Shown: piece after piece, positions 4,993 to 52,575 of the stretch
How positions within the stretch are numbered: position 1 is the first letter of the stretch
Layout of the letters: each line of letters starts with the position of its first letter
Assembly (NCBI RefSeq): GCF_051903065.1
Contig: NZ_CP178438.1
Reading direction: 5' to 3' (one strand)
Origin: Escherichia coli
GTDB taxonomy: Bacteria; Pseudomonadota; Gammaproteobacteria; Enterobacterales; Enterobacteriaceae
Length of the DNA: 64,000 nucleotides
Program-made: the position numbers and the translations under genes
The notes under the pieces: model-generated
The model's database searches: none
Told to the model about the DNA's origin: nothing
What the model saw: only the letters and a program-made list of their open reading frames with translations

Positions 4993-5083
4993 ATAATAAT
5001 CTTACTGATGTAAAACGTTTTTTTACGTTCATCAGCCTGATATGCCTGGTATTATTAAGAGCACGAATTGTTAACCCGCGTAA

Positions 5084-7498
5084 TTAATACAGGTTTCGCC
5101 ACTTATCATCTTCCTGCAAACGCTGGTTCCGATAGAAGATACGCAGGCCTGCTCCTGACGGAATACTGCCACCGCGAAGGAGTAAATCGACCTCTTTCTC
5201 GCTGCCATCAAATCCTCTGGACTTCAGTTCATAGACGAGCTGCTGTCGCTGATGATCTGTAATTCGCTGTTTGTAGTCTTTACGCCGTTTCGGCTTAACC
5301 AGGCGTAACCTTGCTGCCAGTTCCCGGCGCTCTTTTTTGCTCATACTGTGCAGATAATCGTGCAACTCCTTGTCATCCATGCGGGTAATATCCGTTCTGG
5401 TGTCCCCATCAGCTGATTTATCTTTCTCCTGTTGGTTCAAATTTTCAGCAAGGGGACAGTTATTGCCACGAGTCCAAGGGGCGCAAGCGCCCTGGTCGGC
5501 TACCGCCTCCTGAACGTCAACGGCTTTACGAACCATTTTCCACTTCACTGCATGAGTGCAGATCTTGCCCTCTGCAATGGGTGACCAGATGCCATAAATA
5601 CGAATGCCGTGATCGCCATAGGCGGTCGGCTCTTCGTTAATTTCATAAGCAGTTCTGATGAGGTGATATTTGCGGGGAACCAGTACGCCACCCTGCTTCA
5701 TGATGTAAGTGGCAAAACAACCAGCATCAGCAGCAGCCAGGATGGCATCAAGGCGCGGGTTATCCAGTACCGGCGCACCTGCTTTTTTGTCGCCCTGTTG
5801 CCTTGCCGCCTGACCAGCCAGCAATCGCAGTTCACGGTAAGCCTGACGCCCCGGAATACCAAAGAAGCGGAATTGCTGAACACGATGCAGAGACGCCCAG
5901 GCATTAACGTATTCAGCGTTATCACGCAGGGATTTACCCGTTTCCTTGCTGATCTCGCCAGCCAGACCACGCCCGTCAATGTTCTTACTAATGTATTTCG
6001 CAATGTAGCTTGTCGGCGTTCCTTTGCGCGGGTTTATCAGCTCAGACTTAAAGCGTGGCCCCGTGTTATTGCCCAGCTCCTCGCGGTCTTCACGGATGGC
6101 AAACTTACGCAACAATGCAGTAATGGCGCGGCGGTCTTTTTTGCGCATGAAACACAACAGGTGCCAGTGAACTGTGCCGTCATGATGCGGCTCAGCCACC
6201 CGCACGCCATACCAGCGCAACCCGGCTTTGTGCATAGCCTTACGAAATGCAGCAAACATGCCGACCAGATAATCGCTGCTTTGTCTTACTGTCGCGTTGG
6301 TCCAGGTCGGGTTTGGCCTGCCGTTATTTAGCGTGGAATGGAAACGTGACGGACAGGTGATGGTGTAGAAAACGGCGCAGTCACCACGCATTTCCGCGAT
6401 AAGCTCCAGGCCTTTAACACAGGCCATCATCTCGTTGCGGCGATGCGCCGGGTTGCTGCTGCTGGCGTTTACCACATCCTCCATGTTCAGCGTGTCGCCG
6501 TCTTCGTTCACCAGTTCATGAGAACGGAAAAACTCCAGCGACTTACGGCGCTGCTCACGTTTATGCATCACGGCTTCATAGCTAACATAGGGAGATGCTT
6601 TTTTGCTGACCAGGCAGACAGCACGCAACTGCTCTTCCCGCAATTCGCAACGCATCTTCCATAATTTCCGATACCACCAGTCGGCGCACAGCATACGCGC
6701 CAGCGAACCCGGAATGAGTTCATAAGGCACAGGTTTGCGGCGGTTTCTTTTCCGGCGGAGTTGCTCAAACGCAGGCGGTATGACATCCAGTCGCAGGGTT
6801 TCTGCAGCCACCTTTTCCCATGTCTTGCGGATTTCTTCTGGCTTAACATCATCGGAGGCGTACAAATCACCACAAGCGGCATCAAGACACATGCTCATAT
6901 GCGCAGCGACAAGGGTAGACAGGCGTTTCACCTGATCCTGACTCATTTCAGGCAGGATCAGCAGACCGTCCAGCCCCTCATGGCTTGCCATAAAACGAAA
7001 AGATGCAGATAGCTGGCTGTCGCGTACATGCTCCAGTCGTTCCAGACATGGCTTAATCGTCTCACGCAAATAGCGGGAATAAGCCTTTGGCCTGCCCATG
7101 CTGCTGAAATATTCAATACGTTGCATCAGCGGCTTGCTGATATGGGAAGGCTGGGCGTTGACGTCAGCCAGAATGACCATGTCTGGATTAAAACGCTGCT
7201 GCTCATGCGCCATCTTTGCCCGGCTAATGAGCTTATCCTGCTCCATTTCGCGTTGGACAGGATCACGGGATTCATTAAAGAAATAATGCTCCCAGACCTG
7301 ATCACTCAGTGCCTCGCGGCGCAGTTGTTCCTGCTCGTTATCGGTAGCGTACAGAGTGATCAGGTTTGAAAGCGCAGAAACCGGCGCAACTTCCGCCGGG
7401 TCCAGATAAGGGTTAATGGCCTTTTTCGGGCTGTTCCATGAGAACGCTGCGGCAGCCTCGTTAAAGCCGCAGCAGTTGTTCATATCGGCATGACTCAT
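5084..7498 (-). CDS. Phage replication initiation protein (P2/186 gene A-like rolling-circle endonuclease)
   Basis: 804-aa ORF in the early-operon position of P2-like phages. Confidence 0.75.
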
Positions 7499-8352
7499 GC
7501 ACGTACTCCGTACACGGCAGAACTATCCACGCCACGCGAATAATCAAATCCCACCCAGCAGCGCGGCCCGGAAACAGCAATGATTTCTGTTGCTGATTTA
7601 CCCTCGCCAGCTGCCACACCGATGCTGCGTTTTACCTTGATATAGTGGTGAATAAAATTGCGATACAGCGAACGGATCAGGGATGTGTCACTGTTAGAAA
7701 CAATGACCGGATGTCCTTCTGATGACCGATGTTCAAGAACGGATGCCAGGTGATACTGATCATCTTCAGTGAAACCATCAGTGTGATAGCCGGAAAACGT
7801 ACCGTCATACGGCGGATCGCAATACACCACATCCCCCGCCTTCAACATCGCCAGCGTTTCATCAAAGCTGGCGCAGATAAACGTTGCTCGCTGGGCTTTT
7901 TCTGCAAATGCGCGAATTTCTTTTTCAGGGAAATACGGATTTTTATAATTACCGTAGGGAATGTTGAAATGCCCGCTCTTGTTATAGCGACATAAACCAC
8001 GGTAACCGTGACGATTGAGATACAGGAAATATACCGCTTTCATGAAATCAGTAATTTCAGTTGAGTAATTAAACTCCTGCCTTATGTTGTAATAAGCCAC
8101 CTCCCTGTTTGCGATCTCAAATAAAACTCTGGCGCGAGATATAAACGATTCACAATCAGCAGCAACCTTTTTATAGAGGTTGATTAAATCAGGATTAATA
8201 TCCGCAACAAGATAGCTGGGGTACTCCGTCTCCATCATCACTGCACAGGAACCCGCGAAAGGTTCAACCAGTCGCGGGCCAGCAGGAAGGTGTTTTTTCA
8301 GTTCGGACATAATTGCGGTTTTATTTCCCGCCCATTTCAGGATGGTGCTCAT
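7495..8352 (-). CDS. DNA adenine methyltransferase (Dam-like, phage-encoded orphan MTase); start may lie further upstream at 8412
   Basis: ILKWAGNK N-terminal motif and DPPY catalytic motif in translation. Confidence 0.8.
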
Positions 8353-8576
8353 ACAGCACCTCCGTTGTAATGTTTGCCTTTCAGCTCTGCGATTTCCTGA
8401 CAGGTAATGCAAAGCTGCACTCCAGGAATGGCGCGGCGGCGTGCTGGCGGAATTGGCACTTCACATTCAATGCAAAGCACGCGAGACACGCCCGGTGTTT
8501 TGGCACGGGCAGCACGGATATGGCGCTGGCGTTCTTCTTCAACGCGCTGCTGTACGAGATCCATTGCATCAGCCAT
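8349..8576 (-). CDS. TraR/DksA-family C4 zinc-finger protein
   Basis: 75-aa ORF with CxxC...CxxC spacing (CIECEVPI...CITCQE). Confidence 0.6.
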   Translation of the reverse strand: MADAMDLVQQRVEEERQRHIRAARAKTPGVSRVLCIECEVPIPPARRRAIPGVQLCITCQEIAELKGKHYNGGAV

Positions 8577-10293: not shown

Positions 10294-10926
10294 ATGATAC
10301 AGGTAAAGGCTGGAGAGAATACAGGGGGAAGAGAGGCTATCCATAGACTAATGGCAGCCTATGATTTCAAGTCCAGACAGCAACTTTGCGATCACTTAGG
10401 CGCATCAAAAAGCACCATGGCAAACAGATACTTAAGAGATAGTTTTCCTGCAGAGTGGGTGATTCAGTGCGCCTTGGAAACAGGAGTTTCTTTACTGTGG
10501 CTAACCACCGGACAGGGAGAGCCAGGTCCAAACATTGAACCTAAAAAAAATATCAATTCCGTGAACTCCAGCAAAGTTGTACCTCTTTCTGAACTAGTAT
10601 CTCCTGAAATTGACAAGGCGACTCTCAACGGTGGTTTATTGGTCGATGCTGGAAAAGCAATCATTGATAGCAGCATACTCCCCTCAGACTCAAGCAACCT
10701 ACTGCTGGTGACTACTTCTGGTGATTCTTATTTAATAGATCGCAACCAAACACCACCAGTAAATGGTATGTGGTTAGTCGATATCGACGGGATAAAAAGC
10801 ATTGTTAAATTGACTCGGCTCCCGGGAAACAAATTAGTAGTGCATCAGGATGATTCATCGTTTGAGTGCGGTCTGGATGACATTGAGGTAGTAGGCCGCG
10901 CACTGAAAATCATTAAGAGCCTTTGA
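10294..10926 (+). CDS. cI: Prophage CI-like immunity repressor
   Basis: 210-aa ORF with N-terminal HTH, located directly upstream of int as in 186. Confidence 0.6.
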   Translation: MIQVKAGENTGGREAIHRLMAAYDFKSRQQLCDHLGASKSTMANRYLRDSFPAEWVIQCALETGVSLLWLTTGQGEPGPNIEPKKNINSVNSSKVVPLSELVSPEIDKATLNGGLLVDAGKAIIDSSILPSDSSNLLLVTTSGDSYLIDRNQTPPVNGMWLVDIDGIKSIVKLTRLPGNKLVVHQDDSSFECGLDDIEVVGRALKIIKSL

Positions 10927-11954: not shown

Positions 11955-13712
11955 CTATTTCATCAAGTAATCCAATTCATCCTTCATAGGTATAACTTGC
12001 TCATAAAGTCTATGGTAGGATTTTCCAATTGCGCCCCTAAATTGAATAAGTTTAGGGGAAAAGCTACCGATATTAATAATATGTTCTTGCGCTATACCAG
12101 GATATGGATCGATAAAAATAATCTCTGTCATACCTAACTGATAAGCTTTTTTAGCACAAAGTTCACAAGGGCTAGCTGTAGTATATAGTTTCCCTCCATT
12201 AATACCGACCCCACCATATTTGGCCAATTGCAAAAAAGCATTCTCCTCTGCGTGTAATGCACGGGTATGCACTTGATTCCCTTTCTTTTCATCATCAAGG
12301 CTGTTGTGAATATCTTTAAAACAATATGGCAAATTAAGTCCTTTAAAAACAGTAGAACTTGAATCACTCGCCCTTATTTTTATTAAATTTTCTTTAACTT
12401 TACTCCTAAATTTTGTATTACTTCGTTCGTACAGGCTATATGTTCCCTCATCAAAATCATGCAATAACCCATCAAATGACCTCATAGAACAAGGAACTTG
12501 ACCTTTTGCTACATCGTTCCAACCAACTGACTTGATAGAGTTATCATTATCTGTCACAACCGCCCCTACTTGCCTAGATATACATCCAGAATTTAGTTTT
12601 ACAGTATATGCAACTTGCATAACCCTTTCCATGGCGGTAGGAGATATTAATCCAGGGTGTTGCATTAATGATACATACCACGCAATTTGTGCTTTGAGAA
12701 AATTATTATTATCAAATTCTTTTTTAGGGTTAAAAAAATGTATATCTGAAATTTCAATGCATTTTTTTACATTAGGATTAGTAAGATGATTATACTCGCC
12801 ATCTCCTTTACCAGATTCTTCATCATTAATTTTCTTTATCTGTTCCTCTGAGAACTTATGTAATTTCTTTAAATATCTGGTTCGATGTTCATCTGGTGCA
12901 TTTATAGAAACCAGATGGAATGCAGCATATCTATCTTTGAAGAATTTAGCTTCATACGGGTTACGTATCGCATCAATGACTATATACGCTTTATTATTCT
13001 TTACTTTTCTAATTATTTTAATAACACGATTAATTGTTTCAGGTAAATGAAAAACAGCCTTTGGAATAAAGTCTTGATTTTCATAATCTACATCAACCTT
13101 CCCTATTCTTCTAATTGACTTTCCTGCTGACTGATATAGCTCAATATATAAACCTGGCTCTAGTTCATTTAATTCCCTTTTAAAATCCCGTGTAAATTTT
13201 CGAGTAAGAGTTAATATCCTAATAAAGGTATCTTTCCCCCTGCCTTTAAAGTCAATCTCATCATCATGATTAAGAAGATTTTTTATCACCTCAAGATATT
13301 TTATCTTCAACAAACTTTTAGCGAACACACCATTAACAACCAGTTTCTTGGCTACCTTAAAGGAAATCGAATTTTCTTTTTTATCGGGGATTTTACTTGC
13401 AGAAAACTGAATGAATTTAGCTAAGGCCGATGGAGATAAAAGGAGCAAATATATTGAAATGAGATCACTGACCTTTATCGAATAGAAGTTCTTCCAATGA
13501 GTCTCTGCAAAATTTTTTACTATTTCATAACGCCGCAAATCCAATCCTTTATAATACTCAGCCAAGACGTTACTATCTGGAAAAGATATTTCTTTTTGTT
13601 CTAAAATATTTGCTGCAGTAGTACATCCTGAGCCAGTTCTCCCAGTTAAACCAATAAGAATAAATTGACTATTTTCTAAAAAAAGCTCACTAATAAATTT
13701 GTGTTCTCTCAT
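11955..13712 (-). CDS. P-loop nucleotide-kinase / cytidine-deaminase fusion protein (candidate antiphage dCTP-deaminase-type cargo gene)
   Basis: N-terminal GLTGRTGSGCTT Walker-A-like motif; C-terminal HAEENA...PCELC zinc-deaminase motif; AT-rich; lies between int and attR. Confidence 0.65.
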   Translation of the reverse strand: MREHKFISELFLENSQFILIGLTGRTGSGCTTAANILEQKEISFPDSNVLAEYYKGLDLRRYEIVKNFAETHWKNFYSIKVSDLISIYLLLLSPSALAKFIQFSASKIPDKKENSISFKVAKKLVVNGVFAKSLLKIKYLEVIKNLLNHDDEIDFKGRGKDTFIRILTLTRKFTRDFKRELNELEPGLYIELYQSAGKSIRRIGKVDVDYENQDFIPKAVFHLPETINRVIKIIRKVKNNKAYIVIDAIRNPYEAKFFKDRYAAFHLVSINAPDEHRTRYLKKLHKFSEEQIKKINDEESGKGDGEYNHLTNPNVKKCIEISDIHFFNPKKEFDNNNFLKAQIAWYVSLMQHPGLISPTAMERVMQVAYTVKLNSGCISRQVGAVVTDNDNSIKSVGWNDVAKGQVPCSMRSFDGLLHDFDEGTYSLYERSNTKFRSKVKENLIKIRASDSSSTVFKGLNLPYCFKDIHNSLDDEKKGNQVHTRALHAEENAFLQLAKYGGVGINGGKLYTTASPCELCAKKAYQLGMTEIIFIDPYPGIAQEHIINIGSFSPKLIQFRGAIGKSYHRLYEQVIPMKDELDYLMK

Positions 13713-14139: not shown

Positions 14140-17100
14140 TCAGAACGACCAGTTCACACCAGCCACCGCGTTCCACGGGGATTCCACATCGGCACCGTTG
14201 CTATACCCCACCCCGAGATGCCCGCTTAACGTACTGCTGAATGAGGCTTTAATACCTGCCTGGTATATTTCACGTCTGCCCGACAAATCATTGACGAAAT
14301 TACCGTCATTATTCACCTTCACCCGGTTATCATCGACAAATTCTTTGCGCACAGCCGCCTTCAGCCACGGCTCAACTTCCATACCGTTCCCCAGACGCAT
14401 GTTGTAACTCAGCGTTGCACCCAGTTCACGATATATACTGCGGGTATCGACTGATTTCGATTCCATGCCATTGGATAAATGATATTCAGGGTTATCAGCG
14501 GTGAACCCCGTTAACGATGCATACGGCGTCAGGTTCCAGTTACCATCGGTAAATCGCATCCCGGTTTCAATGTGACCGCCCAGCCCGTTGCTGCGATAAC
14601 TGCCGTTGGCGGCTCCACCGCTGCTCATTTTACCGGCTACGTTACTTTCAAAACGGTTCAGCTTCACGACACCGTCCAGATAAAAACCACTTTCATGTTC
14701 CCAACTGGCATAGCCGCCCAGAGAATAACTGCCCACACTGCCATGTCCTCCGCGATCAAAACCGATATGTGAATGGGAATAGCCCATAAAAGCGCCCAGC
14801 GTGGCAATCCCTTCAGGAATATCATTACGACTGTCGATTCCCACTGTCATTCCGGTCAGCGTCTGCTCAAACCCGGCACCCGCATCGGTGGTGACATTAT
14901 TACGGGTGTTATACGTCGCCCCCCAGACATTATTGTTGTGTGGACTCGCTTTCATTATGTTCAACCGCTCGCGAATACTGTTTAGCTCAGCATCAAATAC
15001 CAACGGTAATGTTGCAGCCATATTGAGTACGGCTGCCGTAGAAGGCGTGATGCGTTTCTCCGGAACGGGTGTCGGCGTTGGATCGGGAGTCGGGTCTGGT
15101 TTCGGATCCGGTTTTGGGTCTGGTTTTGGATCTGGCTTCGGATTTGGGTTGGGATTTGGGTTGGGATCCGGGTTGGGTTTGACATCATTGGTCAGGTTCC
15201 AGTTGCTGTTGCCATCGCTTTTCAGGACATACTCATAGGTCCCAAGATCAACGAAACCGCCAGTATTGCCCAGCGAAAACGAAGCATCCCCTCCCCCTGT
15301 TTTCACCAGCGTCATCGCGTCGTCAGACTGAGGGCTGACGCCGGTATCCTGAACAAAGATTTTAAAATTACCAGTGGCGTTGTTGTTGACGACCAGTTGA
15401 TCGCCCCGGGAGCCAGCAACGTTGGTATGCAGGTAGAAATTACCGCTACCGGAAAGTTCATTGGTTGTCAGCGTATTGTAGATACCGTTAGTTGTGGCAG
15501 GCGCTGCTGTTTGTGCTGATAAATAAACATCACCGTCGTTGAGTAGCAAACTGTTTACTCTATATTCGCAGTTGCTGGTACCTGCACAGGAATTATTGCT
15601 GTTAAGCCAGACACTGCCCCGGCTGGCAGCCGTCAGGTCGGCAAGCGTGGTATCGACGCCATTTCCCAGAGTTAATGTCGCGCTATCGGTAATCCGAACC
15701 GCCCCTTCAAGTTTTACTGGCGTAACATTATCCCGTGGCGTGATTAACGACAGGCTTCCTGTCGCGCCACTGACCGATGCATCCGCCAGCGTACCTGCGT
15801 AGATGATTGCCGTCCCGCCAGCGACCTGGAGATCTTCTGCCCGGGCCAGAGGCTGAAACTCATCTTTTGACCGCCCAAGGGTATATTGCCCGCCAGAGTT
15901 AACCTTTGTAGCGGAGTCCTGACCCAGGTTTTGCATTGCACCACCCTTGCCAACCGTGGAGTCATGGGCTTCGGTACCTGCTAATACCAATAAATTACCA
16001 CCATTTTCCAGCAACATATTGGTCGCTAAATTTCCGGCAATGGAAAAGGTGCCGTACTGGTGAGTACCGCTGATTTCAATACCGTTAGCCGTGCTCGTCT
16101 GGAGAGCGGCACCGCTGTTCTGGACGATATCTGTCGCTTTGCCATTATCGTTGACTGTCAGCGTTCCGCCTTCATTGATCGTTGTTTTTATTGCTTCTCC
16201 GTTAGCTGAAACTGTTTGTATTCCGCCGTCGTTAATTGTTGTCTCATTCGCCACACCCTCGACGATTTGTTCACCGCCGGTGAGCGTCGTGCCTGTCGCA
16301 GTGGCTTTTGTTTTGACGATCTCCCGTCCGCCCGTATTGACCTGTGTTTTGTCAGAAGAGGTGTCTGACTCTACGGTTAACACGCCGCCATTTGCCAGCA
16401 GGATATTGTTCGCCGCACCCTGCTCGATGCTGAACGCGACGCCATCCGCGCGTGTTCCTGTGACCCGCGTCGCCCTGGTGGTTGCAACCAAAGCGCCCTG
16501 CCTACTCTGCTGTATCCCCGTTGCGCTGCCTTTCTCCCACACATCGAGTGTGCCGCCGTCATTAAGCACCGAGTTTTCAGCCAGACCGCCCTCATTAACT
16601 ACCTGTGAACCCCCATTAATAATGGAACCTTCCGCTGTCCCGTTTGCCATAATTTGTTGTAGGCCAGAGACGATATCGGTATTGATTGCCTTACCATAAT
16701 TCTGAACGGTTTGCGTGCCACCATTGATGTGTGTTTTCTCTGTTGACCCACCATCAACAATTTGTTCACCACTTTCGATATTTGCCTCAGTGGCTAATCC
16801 ATATACCGTTTGCTTGCCACCTTTGATATTTGCTTTATCAGAAGTGGCACTGGCATATATTGTTTGGGTGCCAGCACTATTGAGTACAGTGCCAACATCT
16901 TTTCCATAAACATCCATTTTGCCGTTGGCATTAATAATCGTATCAACTGCCCGGGAACCAGTGACGACTGTTAATGAGCCAGCGTTTTCCAGCACTACAT
17001 TTTTAGCTTCTGAATTCCTGATGTAGAAAGCATCACCATAACTGTTGGTTCCTTCGATAAGTGTTCCGGAGGTCGTGGAAGCAATTAATGCGCCGCCGGA

Positions 17101-17470
17101 TTGTTGCTCAACATGCTTAGCCTCACCACCGTCCTGAACCTCCAGAACGCCGCCATTATTAAGTCTGGTGCTATCTGTTTTAGCCTCCTTCTGGACAATC
17201 AGCTTACCGCCAGCATCAATGGTAGTATTTTTCGCCGAGGTTTTAGCCACTACCGTCAGTTCGCCGGTATTTTCCAGCACAACATAATTAGCCTCCCCTC
17301 CGGTAATAGTGAAGTGAGAGAGCTTGTTGTATCCTTCGATATCAGTCCCTGCACCCGTGTTGGCAACTAAAGCACTGCCCGTCTCCTGGTTAACCCCATG
17401 TGCAATACCGCCGGTATAGACAATCAGCGAGCCTCCGGCGCTAATATTGCTGCCAATTGCCGTACCATCT
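14140..17470 (-). pseudogene. ypjA: Autotransporter adhesin (YpjA-like), 5'-truncated by IS903
   Basis: Repetitive passenger domain, PNPDP/KPDP linker, C-terminal beta-barrel ending in WSF; ORF lacks signal peptide and runs into the IS903 end. Confidence 0.7.
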
Positions 17471-18527
17471 GGCTTTGTTGAATAAATCAGATTTCGGGTA
17501 AGTCTCCCCCGTAGCGGGTTGTGTTTTCAGGCAATACGCACGCTTTCAGGCATACCTGCTTTCGTCATTTTGTTCAGCGCTCGTACCAGGGCCATAGCCT
17601 CTGCAACCTGACCATCGTAGTCACGCAGTGTCAGTGAACCCCCGAACAGCTGTTTTACCCGGTACATCGCCGTTTCCGCTATCGAGCGACGGTTGTAATC
17701 TGTTGTCCATTTCCACCGCGCATTACTCCCGGTCATTCGCTGATTAGCCACTGCACGGTTACGGTCTGCATATTCACCGGGCCAGTAACCCGCACCTTTT
17801 CGGGGAGGGATAAGCGCGCTGATTTTCTTACGCCGCAGTTCATCGTGACATAGCCGGGTATCGTAAGCGCCATCGGCGGCGGCTGACCTGATTTTCCGGT
17901 GGGTTTGCCGGATTAACCCGGGGAAGGCCTCTGAGTCCGTAACGTTGTTCAGCGACAGGTCAGCGCAGATGATTTCATGTGTTTTACTGTCAACGGCGAG
18001 ATGCAGCTTACGCCAGATACGGCGGCGTTCCTGGCCATGCTTTTTGACTTTCCACTCGCCTTCACCGAAGACCTTCAGCCCGGTGGAATCAATTACCAGG
18101 TGTGCGATTTCACCCCGGGTGGGCGTTTTGAAACTGACATTAACCGACTTTGCCCGCCTGCTGACACAGCTGTAATCCGGGCAGCGTAGCGGAACGTTCA
18201 TCAGAGAAAAAATGGAATCAATAAAGCCCTGCGCAGCGCGCAGGGTCAGCCTGAATACGCGTTTAATGACCAGCACAGTCGTGATGGCAAGGTCAGAATA
18301 GCGCTGAGGTCTGCCTCGTGAAGAAGGTGTTGCTGACTCATACCAGGCCTGAATAGCTTCATCATCCAGCCAGAAAGTTATGGAGCCACGGTTGATGAGG
18401 GCTTTATTGTAGGTGGGCCAGTTGGTGATTTTGAACTTTTGCTTTGCCACGGAACGGTCTGCGTTGTCGGGAAGATACGTGATCTGATCCTTCAACTCAG
18501 CAAAAGTTCGATTTATTCAACAAAGCC
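17471..18527 (-). mobile_element. IS903-group insertion sequence (IS5 family), complete 1057 bp
   Basis: Terminal inverted repeats GGCTTTGTTGAATAAATC at both ends. Confidence 0.85.
17527..18495 (-). CDS. IS903 transposase
   Basis: 322-aa ORF; translation matches IS903 transposase as recalled. Confidence 0.85.
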   Translation of the reverse strand: MKDQITYLPDNADRSVAKQKFKITNWPTYNKALINRGSITFWLDDEAIQAWYESATPSSRGRPQRYSDLAITTVLVIKRVFRLTLRAAQGFIDSIFSLMNVPLRCPDYSCVSRRAKSVNVSFKTPTRGEIAHLVIDSTGLKVFGEGEWKVKKHGQERRRIWRKLHLAVDSKTHEIICADLSLNNVTDSEAFPGLIRQTHRKIRSAAADGAYDTRLCHDELRRKKISALIPPRKGAGYWPGEYADRNRAVANQRMTGSNARWKWTTDYNRRSIAETAMYRVKQLFGGSLTLRDYDGQVAEAMALVRALNKMTKAGMPESVRIA

Positions 18528-18583
18528 GGGTGATGCTGCCAACTTACTGATTTAGTGTATGATGGTGTTTTTGAGGTGCTCCA

Positions 18584-18859
18584 GTGGCTTCTGTTTCTAT
18601 CAGCTGTCCCTCCTGTTCAGCTACTGACGGGGTGGTGCGTAACGGCAAAAGCACCGCCGGACATCAGCGCTATCTCTGCTCTCACTGCCGTAAAACATGG
18701 CAACTGCAGTTCACTTACACCGCTTCTCAACCCGGTACGCACCAGAAAATCATTGATATGGCCATGAATGGCGTTGGATGCCGGGCAACAGCCCGCATTA
18801 TGGGCGTTGGCCTCAACACGATTTTACGTCACTTAAAAAACTCAGGCCGCAGTCGGTAA
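18584..18859 (+). CDS. insA: IS1 InsA
   Basis: [21 protein letters not shown]... translation. Confidence 0.9.
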
Positions 18860-19281
18860 CCTCGCGCATACAGCCGGGCAGTGACGTCATCGTCTGCGCG
18901 GAAATGGACGAACAGTGGGGCTATGTCGGGGCTAAATCGCGCCAGCGCTGGCTGTTTTACGCGTATGACAGGCTCCGGAAGACGGTTGTTGCGCACGTAT
19001 TCGGTGAACGCACTATGGCGACGCTGGGGCGTCTTATGAGCCTGCTGTCACCCTTTGACGTGGTGATATGGATGACGGATGGCTGGCCGCTGTATGAATC
19101 CCGCCTGAAGGGAAAGCTGCACGTAATCAGCAAGCGATATACGCAGCGAATTGAGCGGCATAACCTGAATCTGAGGCAGCACCTGGCACGGCTGGGACGG
19201 AAGTCGCTGTCGTTCTCAAAATCGGTGGAGCTGCATGACAAAGTCATCGGGCATTATCTGAACATAAAACACTATCAATAA
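18778..19281 (+). CDS. insB: IS1 InsB (transposase expressed as InsAB' by frameshift)
   Basis: 167-aa ORF overlapping insA in the -1 frame. Confidence 0.9.
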
Positions 19282-19296
19282 GTTGGAGTCATTACC

Positions 19297-52482: not shown

Positions 52483-52575
52483 TGGCGGTGAGGCGGGGAT
52501 TCGAACCCCGGATGCAGCTTTTGACCGCATACTCCCTTAGCAGGGGAGCGCCTTCAGCCTCTCGGCCACCTCACC
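52483..52575 (-). tRNA. serV: tRNA-Ser (anticodon GCU)
   Basis: Reverse complement is GGTGAGGTGGCCGAGAGGCTGAAGGCGCTCCCCTGCTAAGGGAG...CGCCA with long variable arm. Confidence 0.9.

Follow-up and report, generated by a model that had tools for sequence, protein, structure and literature searches.

Proline-rich spacers and polymorphism of proline repeats are already documented in autotransporters. In TibA, the self-associating autotransporter of ETEC, "an additional proline-rich domain" lies between the junction and the membrane domain (PMC3835316), and in the pertactin of Bordetella the number of the R1 repeats, (GGXXP)n, and of the R2 repeats, (PQP)n, differs between strains (PMC3279416). In TonB, domain II is made of (Glu-Pro)n-(Lys-Pro)m, the Pro-X segments of which are taken as polyproline-II (PPII) helices spanning the periplasm (PMC12204202). 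The reference gene ypjA of E. coli K-12 also encodes a protein with a tract of Pro-X dipeptides; our literature search found no published description of this YpjA/EhaD tract or of its polymorphism. We analysed it in a stretch of 64,000 nucleotides of E. coli (contig NZ_CP178438.1), which we call the window, and in the complete genomes of the species. We think it probable that this tract serves YpjA/EhaD as a proline-rich spacer, in the form of a PPII-like stalk, and that its length drifts through slippage during replication.

The tract lies on the minus strand of the window at 15058..15177, as delimited by translation, by the codon table and by a six-frame scan. Its translation, PNPDPNPNPNPNPKPDPKPDPKPDPKPDPTPDPTPTPVPE, consists of 20 unbroken Pro-X dipeptides where X is N, D, K, T, V or E. 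This amounts to 120 nt of coding repeat and to 40 residues, half of which (20/40) are prolines, with a periodicity of 6 nt and of 12 nt. Tandem Repeats Finder detects head-to-tail units with a period of 12, in an array of 6.9 copies with 83% matches at 15080-15177, together with arrays of period 24 and of period 36. In the 1,069 residues of the protein which lie outside the tract there are 13 prolines. A run of 20 Pro-X units is expected by chance at about 5e-36 sites; the longest run obtained in 2,000 shuffles of the residues had 4 units, to be compared with the 20 observed, and the six-frame scan of the 64-kb window gave no further run of at least 6 units in any frame. The proline-rich tandem repeat announced by the preliminary description thus exists, far beyond what chance would give, and the peptide quoted there is the first 25 residues of the tract. 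The interval proposed for it, 15060-15190, is right within a few bases: it takes in the preceding N-D-V-K codons and misses the last 2 nt. At the DNA level the repeat of the window is imperfect and interrupted, because codon choice varies (CCC, CCA and CCG are mixed, as are AAC with AAT, AAA with AAG, and GAT with GAC). The longest stretch of exact period 12 is 28 nt long, that is to say 2.3 copies of CCCAACCCAAAT.

The tract is surrounded by an open frame of 1,109 codons on the minus strand (14140-17470). Judging by its sequence matches, this gene is ypjA/ehaD, an AIDA-type (type Va) autotransporter adhesin gene of E. coli. The name was obtained by a megablast search against 5,426 complete E. 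coli genomes, which returned "adhesin-like autotransporter YpjA/EhaD", with ypjA in all the matches listed. The identity with ypjA of K-12 (b2647) is 97.4% over 3,515 nt, and the chromosomal neighbourhood resembles that of K-12, csiD/glaH and lhgO being found downstream of the gene. In this frame Pfam reports, in order, six AIDA repeats (PF16168, E 1e-104), a Pertactin domain, the tract and an Autotransporter beta-domain. We must also mention an ORF of 145 codons on the plus strand (14801-15238), in which the tract is read as GSGFGSGFG. If it were the real gene, the signal would belong to the plus strand. The frame is open and has weak low-complexity Pfam matches, one of which (TrAA12) is under the curated cut-off while another (KRTAP, a keratin-associated matrix family) is just above its own. 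However, the ORF is contained wholly within the minus-strand frame, the Pfam and PDB matches of which are strong, and the differences between alleles are mainly synonymous for the minus-strand codons. These facts contradict the plus-strand reading, to which we give practically no credit.

The domains which frame the tract were located by Pfam, by a sequence search of the PDB and by structure prediction. Directly upstream one finds a Pertactin-like/autochaperone domain (15190..15558, minus strand; PF03212, E 4e-45), the C-terminal end of the beta-helical passenger. This upstream flank matches the C-terminal passenger regions of pertactin (1DAB), of IgA1 protease (3H09) and of Hap (3SYJ), which are described as autochaperone regions (PMC5767081). 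The solved passenger chains of pertactin, 1DAB and 2IOU, align to residues 33-138 of the query, upstream of the tract. Directly downstream of the tract comes an alpha-helical linker, ITPSTAAVLNMAATLPLVFDAELNSIRERL... (14953..15045, minus strand), which is predicted to pass through the pore of the barrel and is nearly invariant across the family. It is followed by the beta-barrel translocator domain and the stop codon (14140..14934, minus strand; PF03797, E 8e-45). The linker helix aligns to the starts of the BrkA translocator (3QQ2) and of Vag8 (7AKV), and the barrel matches the same two structures. The PDB sequence matches are found on both sides of the tract only, and none runs across it.

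We modelled the last 486 residues with AF2 from an alignment of 26 sequences (mean pLDDT 84). The model displays a confident beta-helix up to residue 137, with confident beta-strands in the Pertactin-like domain, then a coil at residues 143-179 whose pLDDT is <50, then the linker helix at residues 186-216 (pLDDT about 90) and finally the barrel, with confident antiparallel strands at residues 223-485 (pLDDT about 90). The coil corresponds to the tract. The tract thus separates the autochaperone from the alpha-helical linker, as a spacer placed upstream of the linker like that of TibA. The repeat had been described beforehand as lying inside the linker between passenger and barrel. This holds insofar as the tract is found between PF03212 and PF03797, but the linker in the strict sense is the alpha-helix downstream of the tract.

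We aligned 30 homologues at this junction and found that the insertion point is fixed. It lies between the end of the passenger, G-T-Y-E-Y-x-L...W-x-L, and the helix ITPSTAAVLNMAA...PLVFDAEL, both of which are conserved, the motif of the helix being nearly invariant in the family. What is inserted between them is mostly proline-rich and goes from 0 residues in the YejO-like paralogues up to about 78 in others. As the spacer is absent from YejO and similar paralogues, it should be dispensable for secretion, and the alignment points to an optional, length-tolerant module outside the conserved secretion core.

The same comparison bears on the possibility of a specific role of the tract in binding or adhesion, as a proline-rich motif recognized by a host or bacterial partner. 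Proline-rich PPII segments often serve as interaction motifs, and the tract occupies the position of the TibA domain, the deletion of which reportedly impaired adhesion in the hands of Cote and Mourez in 2011. A sequence-specific ligand should nevertheless be conserved, and this is not what we observe: close paralogues do without the segment, the X residues are freely exchanged between alleles (N/D/K/T/I/G/A/E), and the length goes from 10 to 44 units. A ligand module hence seems improbable to us.

In order to describe the length of the spacer in the species, we compared a query of 351 nt centred on the tract with the 5,426 complete E. coli genomes. This part of ypjA is present in 2,524 of them, that is about 47%. 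Allele frequencies were obtained from two evenly spaced samples of the about 2,500 ypjA-positive records and from counts by bands of identity. The first sample (60 records) contained 31 tracts of 19 units, 19 of 18 units, 8 of 20 units and 1 of 15 units, the spans being respectively 345, 339, 351 and 321 nt. The second sample, for which the query was a 551-nt segment of K-12, gave the same picture of lengths. With this K-12 segment 1,269 records have an identity of 99% or more, and they therefore share the tract length of K-12. The common lengths are 18, 19 (K-12) and 20 units (window, O157:H7), while 10, 11 and 15 units are rarer. The E. coli alleles of 10 and 11 units were found in the protein database, along with E. 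albertii alleles of 9, 15 and 16 units. Over all the alleles that we met in E. coli, the tract has 10 to 44 Pro-X units.

In both samples the spans differ by multiples of 6 nt only. Over all the spans compared, those of the Pro-Asn alleles described below included, there is one exception, a span of 840 nt; in that strain the length of the tract is still a multiple of 3 and the frameshift is located outside it. We aligned ten alleles both as protein and as DNA. All the insertions and deletions fall inside the tract, at repeat boundaries, and the flanks are nearly invariant, their differences being mostly synonymous in the minus-strand frame. In the 18-unit allele the perfect 12-nt unit CCCAACCCAAAT is present in exactly one copy fewer, and in the 15-unit allele 24 nt are missing, at the limits of which there is a direct repeat of 14 nt. 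Every tract which was read base by base is in frame (17/17). As the changes in length are multiples of 6 nt and occur inside the tract, we concluded that the tract is a coding VNTR with an in-frame copy-number polymorphism and not a frameshift switch. A tandem repeat in the gene of a surface adhesin, some alleles of which are annotated as frameshifted, may of course evoke a contingency locus, where frameshifting slippage would drive the phase variation of ypjA. In such a locus, however, a change in the number of repeats shifts the reading frame or the spacing of the promoter, and this does not happen here with a unit of 6 or 12 nt. The 17 tracts in frame and the spans, all but one of which differ by multiples of 6, contradict the switch, which we regard as very improbable.

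The alleles whose repeat is interrupted, to which that of the window belongs, look stable within lineages. The sampled O157 strains all have 20 units and the K-12-like strains all have 19, and no variation in length within a lineage was seen in the two samples for the interrupted allele type of the window.

A different behaviour was revealed by one record of the second sample, the span of which is 132 nt longer. This allele (ETEC6334) has 41 units, almost all of them Pro-Asn, and is built from perfect arrays (AATCCGAACCCA)n and (AATCCA)n. When it was used as a query, the best 60 records displayed 15 different numbers of units, namely 24-31, 33, 38-41, 43 and 44; 7 of these 60 lengths were read base by base and the other 53 were deduced from the alignment spans. 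In the 7 alleles read, the copy numbers of the two arrays vary independently and always in frame. Among porcine ETEC/O139 strains which do not otherwise differ in their flanks, one finds 38, 39, 40, 41 or 44 units, and the identities reported for them are fully accounted for by gaps. The differences in length among these strains are most likely the product of recent slippage. This fast VNTR behaviour is limited to the pure Pro-Asn allele type, which is found in at least 60 genomes and possibly in up to about 157 records, if one counts those with flanks at least 95% identical.

The preliminary description had presented the repeat as prone to slippage and to variation in length, and had proposed to compare the number of repeats among homologues, an identical length everywhere being the outcome that would speak against it. 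The lengths do differ, with alleles of 10, 11, 15, 18-20 and 24-44 units. The expectation was thus correct as to variation, but the variation is fast only in the pure Pro-Asn type.

The mechanism that we propose for the spacer is the following. A proline at each second position would be incompatible with a helix or a sheet and would impose an extended, polyproline-II-like chain. Because alternate prolines exclude helix and sheet, and because the segments of TonB adopt PPII, a PPII conformation and a stalk function are by analogy the most likely ones for the tract. With about 0.31 nm per residue, the 40 residues would form a semi-rigid stalk of roughly 12 nm, which would keep the folded adhesin off the barrel and let it reach out past the LPS layer. 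Such a spacer would tolerate changes in length, because it has no fold to break. These changes would arise from replication slippage (slipped-strand mispairing) or from unequal exchange between direct repeats, and the resulting polymorphism would be largely neutral or weakly selected. Slippage would be slow where codon usage interrupts the repeat, as in the window, in K-12 and in O157, and fast in the perfect Pro-Asn arrays. The searchable literature yielded no experiment on this segment of YpjA.

Some of the Pro-Asn-type ypjA genes are annotated as pseudogenes, and therefore part of the variation may accumulate without constraint. Selection could also have had a share where certain lineages expanded their tract to 24-44 units. 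One may go further and imagine that the Pro-Asn tract is a fast-evolving "molecular ruler", slippage fitting the stalk to the thickness of the O-antigen or of the capsule under a selection specific to each lineage. We find this unlikely. If it were true, the 24-44 units would measure roughly 15-27 nm when fully extended, the length would decide whether the adhesin is exposed or masked, and the tract would act by degrees and in frame, where phase variation switches on and off.

Selection might also come from the host. The tract would then be a surface-exposed immunodominant repeat, the length and sequence of which are driven by antibodies. Antigenic variation of this kind appears rather unlikely to us, although the prediction places the tract outside the cell and gives it no structure, although it is hypervariable in some lineages from pigs and humans, and although the (GGXXP)n and (PQP)n repeats of Bordetella pertactin have been proposed as a precedent (PMC3279416). 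The common alleles are indeed fixed in very large lineages (the 1,269 records of K-12 type, and the sampled O157 strains, all with 20 units), and the fact that ypjA is often a pseudogene argues against a strong immune pressure. The gene is poorly expressed in K-12. We found no serological data on the tract, and a spacer whose length drifts by slippage is the explanation that we retain.

We now turn to the state of the gene in the window. It is present as its 3' 3,331 nt, that is 1,109 codons in frame (14140..17470, minus strand), without start codon or signal peptide. The homology with K-12 spans positions 5009-8515 of the K-12 locus and nothing beyond, and it stops at position 17470 of the window. 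The window lacks some 1,256 nt at the 5' end of ypjA, and with them the start codon and the signal peptide. Direct reading of the sequence shows that ypjA is truncated there by an IS903 of 1,057 bp (17471..18527), with terminal inverted repeats GGCTTTGTTGAATAAATC and a transposase ORF at 17527-18495; the annotation of an identical strain assigns it to the IS903B family. An IS1 of 768 bp, also read directly (18529..19296), starts one base past the end of IS903 and contains an insB-like ORF (18778-19281). Beyond IS1 one finds a 5'-truncated amylase-like gene, and pinH, ypjB and ypjC, which belong to the gene order of K-12, are absent from the window.

We call this copy a remnant because the homology with K-12 ypjA ends at 17470 against IS903 and the 5' end is missing. 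A working autotransporter has a start codon and an N-terminal signal peptide, and this copy has neither; it is therefore the remnant of a member of the autotransporter family and not a working member. The IS1 marks the deletion that took the 5' end of ypjA. What is left is a 3' remnant from an IS903/IS1-associated deletion, the 5' quarter of the gene being lost, and the tract of the window is a relic whose product cannot be exported. Inactivation by IS903 had been recognized in the preliminary description, which understated the damage: the gene lacks some 1,256 nt at its 5' end, and IS1 comes directly after IS903. Two Ecuadorian isolates, 23CRST027 and 23CRST031, have the same arrangement with a pseudogene copy 100% identical to that of the window, and in 23CRST027 NCBI annotates this copy as a pseudogene "missing N-terminus". 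One IS-truncated copy of ypjA was also present among the 60 records of the first sample.

For the window itself the tract has little importance, since only a truncated relic of the gene is left there. Features of this sort are ordinary in this class of proteins, and the present one raises no new biological question. What the analysis documents more generally is that, in the public genomes of E. coli, the spacer of YpjA/EhaD is an in-frame VNTR with 10-44 units. The lineages which carry its Pro-Asn variant, such as porcine ETEC/O139 and some human strains, could be typed with it at high resolution, and one must be aware that pipelines for annotation and for pan-genomes will separate ypjA alleles because of the tract alone. 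YpjA is in use as a surface-display scaffold (PMC13101318), and the spacer offers the users of this scaffold a site for insertions or spacers which is naturally tolerant to length.

Finally, the tract can be set against the known systems which resemble it to various degrees. The procyclins of trypanosomes (PARP; EP and GPEET) carry an acidic Pro-X repeat in a surface coat, and the likeness is compositional only; the corresponding Pfam family, Trypan_PARP, matches the tract below threshold, with 33 bits for a cut-off of 100. The GECM-10 loci used for E. coli MLVA are like the tract in that they have 6-bp units and an in-frame variation of copy number, and in that closely related isolates differ. 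Among them CVN016 was the suspected candidate, as it has large allele numbers and is frequently absent. The tract is not one of these loci, since neither in the window nor at ypjA of K-12 is it flanked by any of the 10 primer pairs. When the 20 primers were checked against the window and the K-12 ypjA locus, the single match was CVN016R, with 2 mismatches, at position 52552 of the window, far off the tract.

Domain II of TonB is like the tract as regards the alternation of proline with charged X residues (Lys-Pro-Asp-Pro in the tract) and the notion of a rod which sets a distance (PMC12204202). The two proteins are however unrelated, and TonB is periplasmic whereas YpjA belongs to the cell surface; they are alike in physical behaviour only and not by ancestry. 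Pertactin and YpjA are both autotransporters with proline-containing tandem repeats whose number differs between strains, and the Pertactin domain of YpjA adjoins the tract. The tract differs from the repeats of pertactin in that its unit is Pro-X and not PQP, and in that it lies after the autochaperone, outside any fold. Moreover, a vaccine-driven selection has been argued for pertactin, whereas nothing comparable is known for YpjA.

TibA, with its residues 627-677, shares the AIDA-type type Va class with YpjA. Its proline-rich domain has the same position as the tract and a similar size, about 50 residues (PMC3835316), so that the two spacers can be likened by position, size and proline content. 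The tract is proline-rich and lies between the autochaperone and the membrane domain, which is what characterizes a spacer of the TibA type. Features of this kind are thus known already, and the range of 10-44 units adds a little to what is known of them.

On its 5' side, the ypjA remnant (the 3' part of an AIDA-type autotransporter adhesin gene, 14140-17470, minus strand) ends at two insertion sequences, IS903 (17471-18527) and IS1 (18529-19296), which are adjacent, only one base separating them. Missing from this junction are the 5' part of ypjA and its K-12 neighbours pinH, ypjB and ypjC, and the next gene past the two elements is an amylase-like gene of the ygaQ type, itself truncated at its 5' end. 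No target duplication of IS903 is visible. The interval 17471-19296 has the appearance of a scar left behind by an IS-mediated deletion.

Among the matches listed, ypjA is broken in other E. coli genomes (strains F765 and 20A24 included) by many different insertion sequences: IS5, IS903B, IS600 and IS1, the last of these in the part coding for the barrel. In strain F765, an IS1203 is inserted in the Pro-X-coding tract itself, at the equivalent of window position 15098/15099. Loss of ypjA appears to be recurrent in E. coli. Several listed copies of ypjA with a long tract, made almost entirely of Pro-Asn units, carry a frameshift or an internal stop according to their annotation. In the best 60 matches to the long Pro-Asn allele, ypjA is only about 3.35-3.5 kb long, against 4.58 kb in K-12; hence the length of the AIDA-repeat passenger also varies between allele families.

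On the plus strand, a 145-codon ORF (14801-15238) reads GSGFGSGFG... across the Pro-X tract. We rejected it as a gene: it arises as an antisense reading of the Pro-X codons, and its Pfam matches are of low complexity only (TrAA12 does not reach its cut-off, and KRTAP passes its own by a narrow margin). ORF finders could nevertheless mis-call it as a gene.

The published primer CVN016R, of a generic E. coli MLVA scheme, matches the window with two mismatches at about 52552 (minus strand); its sequence presumably resembles the 5' end of a tRNA gene. Since nothing in the window matches the forward primer, the CVN016 locus cannot be amplified from it.

Beside the ypjA remnant, a 585-aa ORF (11955-13712, minus strand) with a cytidine/dCMP deaminase zinc-binding domain matches the PADLOC dCTPase model, which describes dCTP deaminase anti-phage defence (E 2e-146). 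Next to it are the genes of a phage integrase (10928-11941) and of a P2-type CI repressor (10294-10926). The segment 10294-13712 looks like the end of a prophage or of an integrative element, carrying a defence gene. In strain 23CRST027, whose ypjA remnant is 100% identical, ssrA directly adjoins the remnant, whereas in the window these phage and defence genes do.
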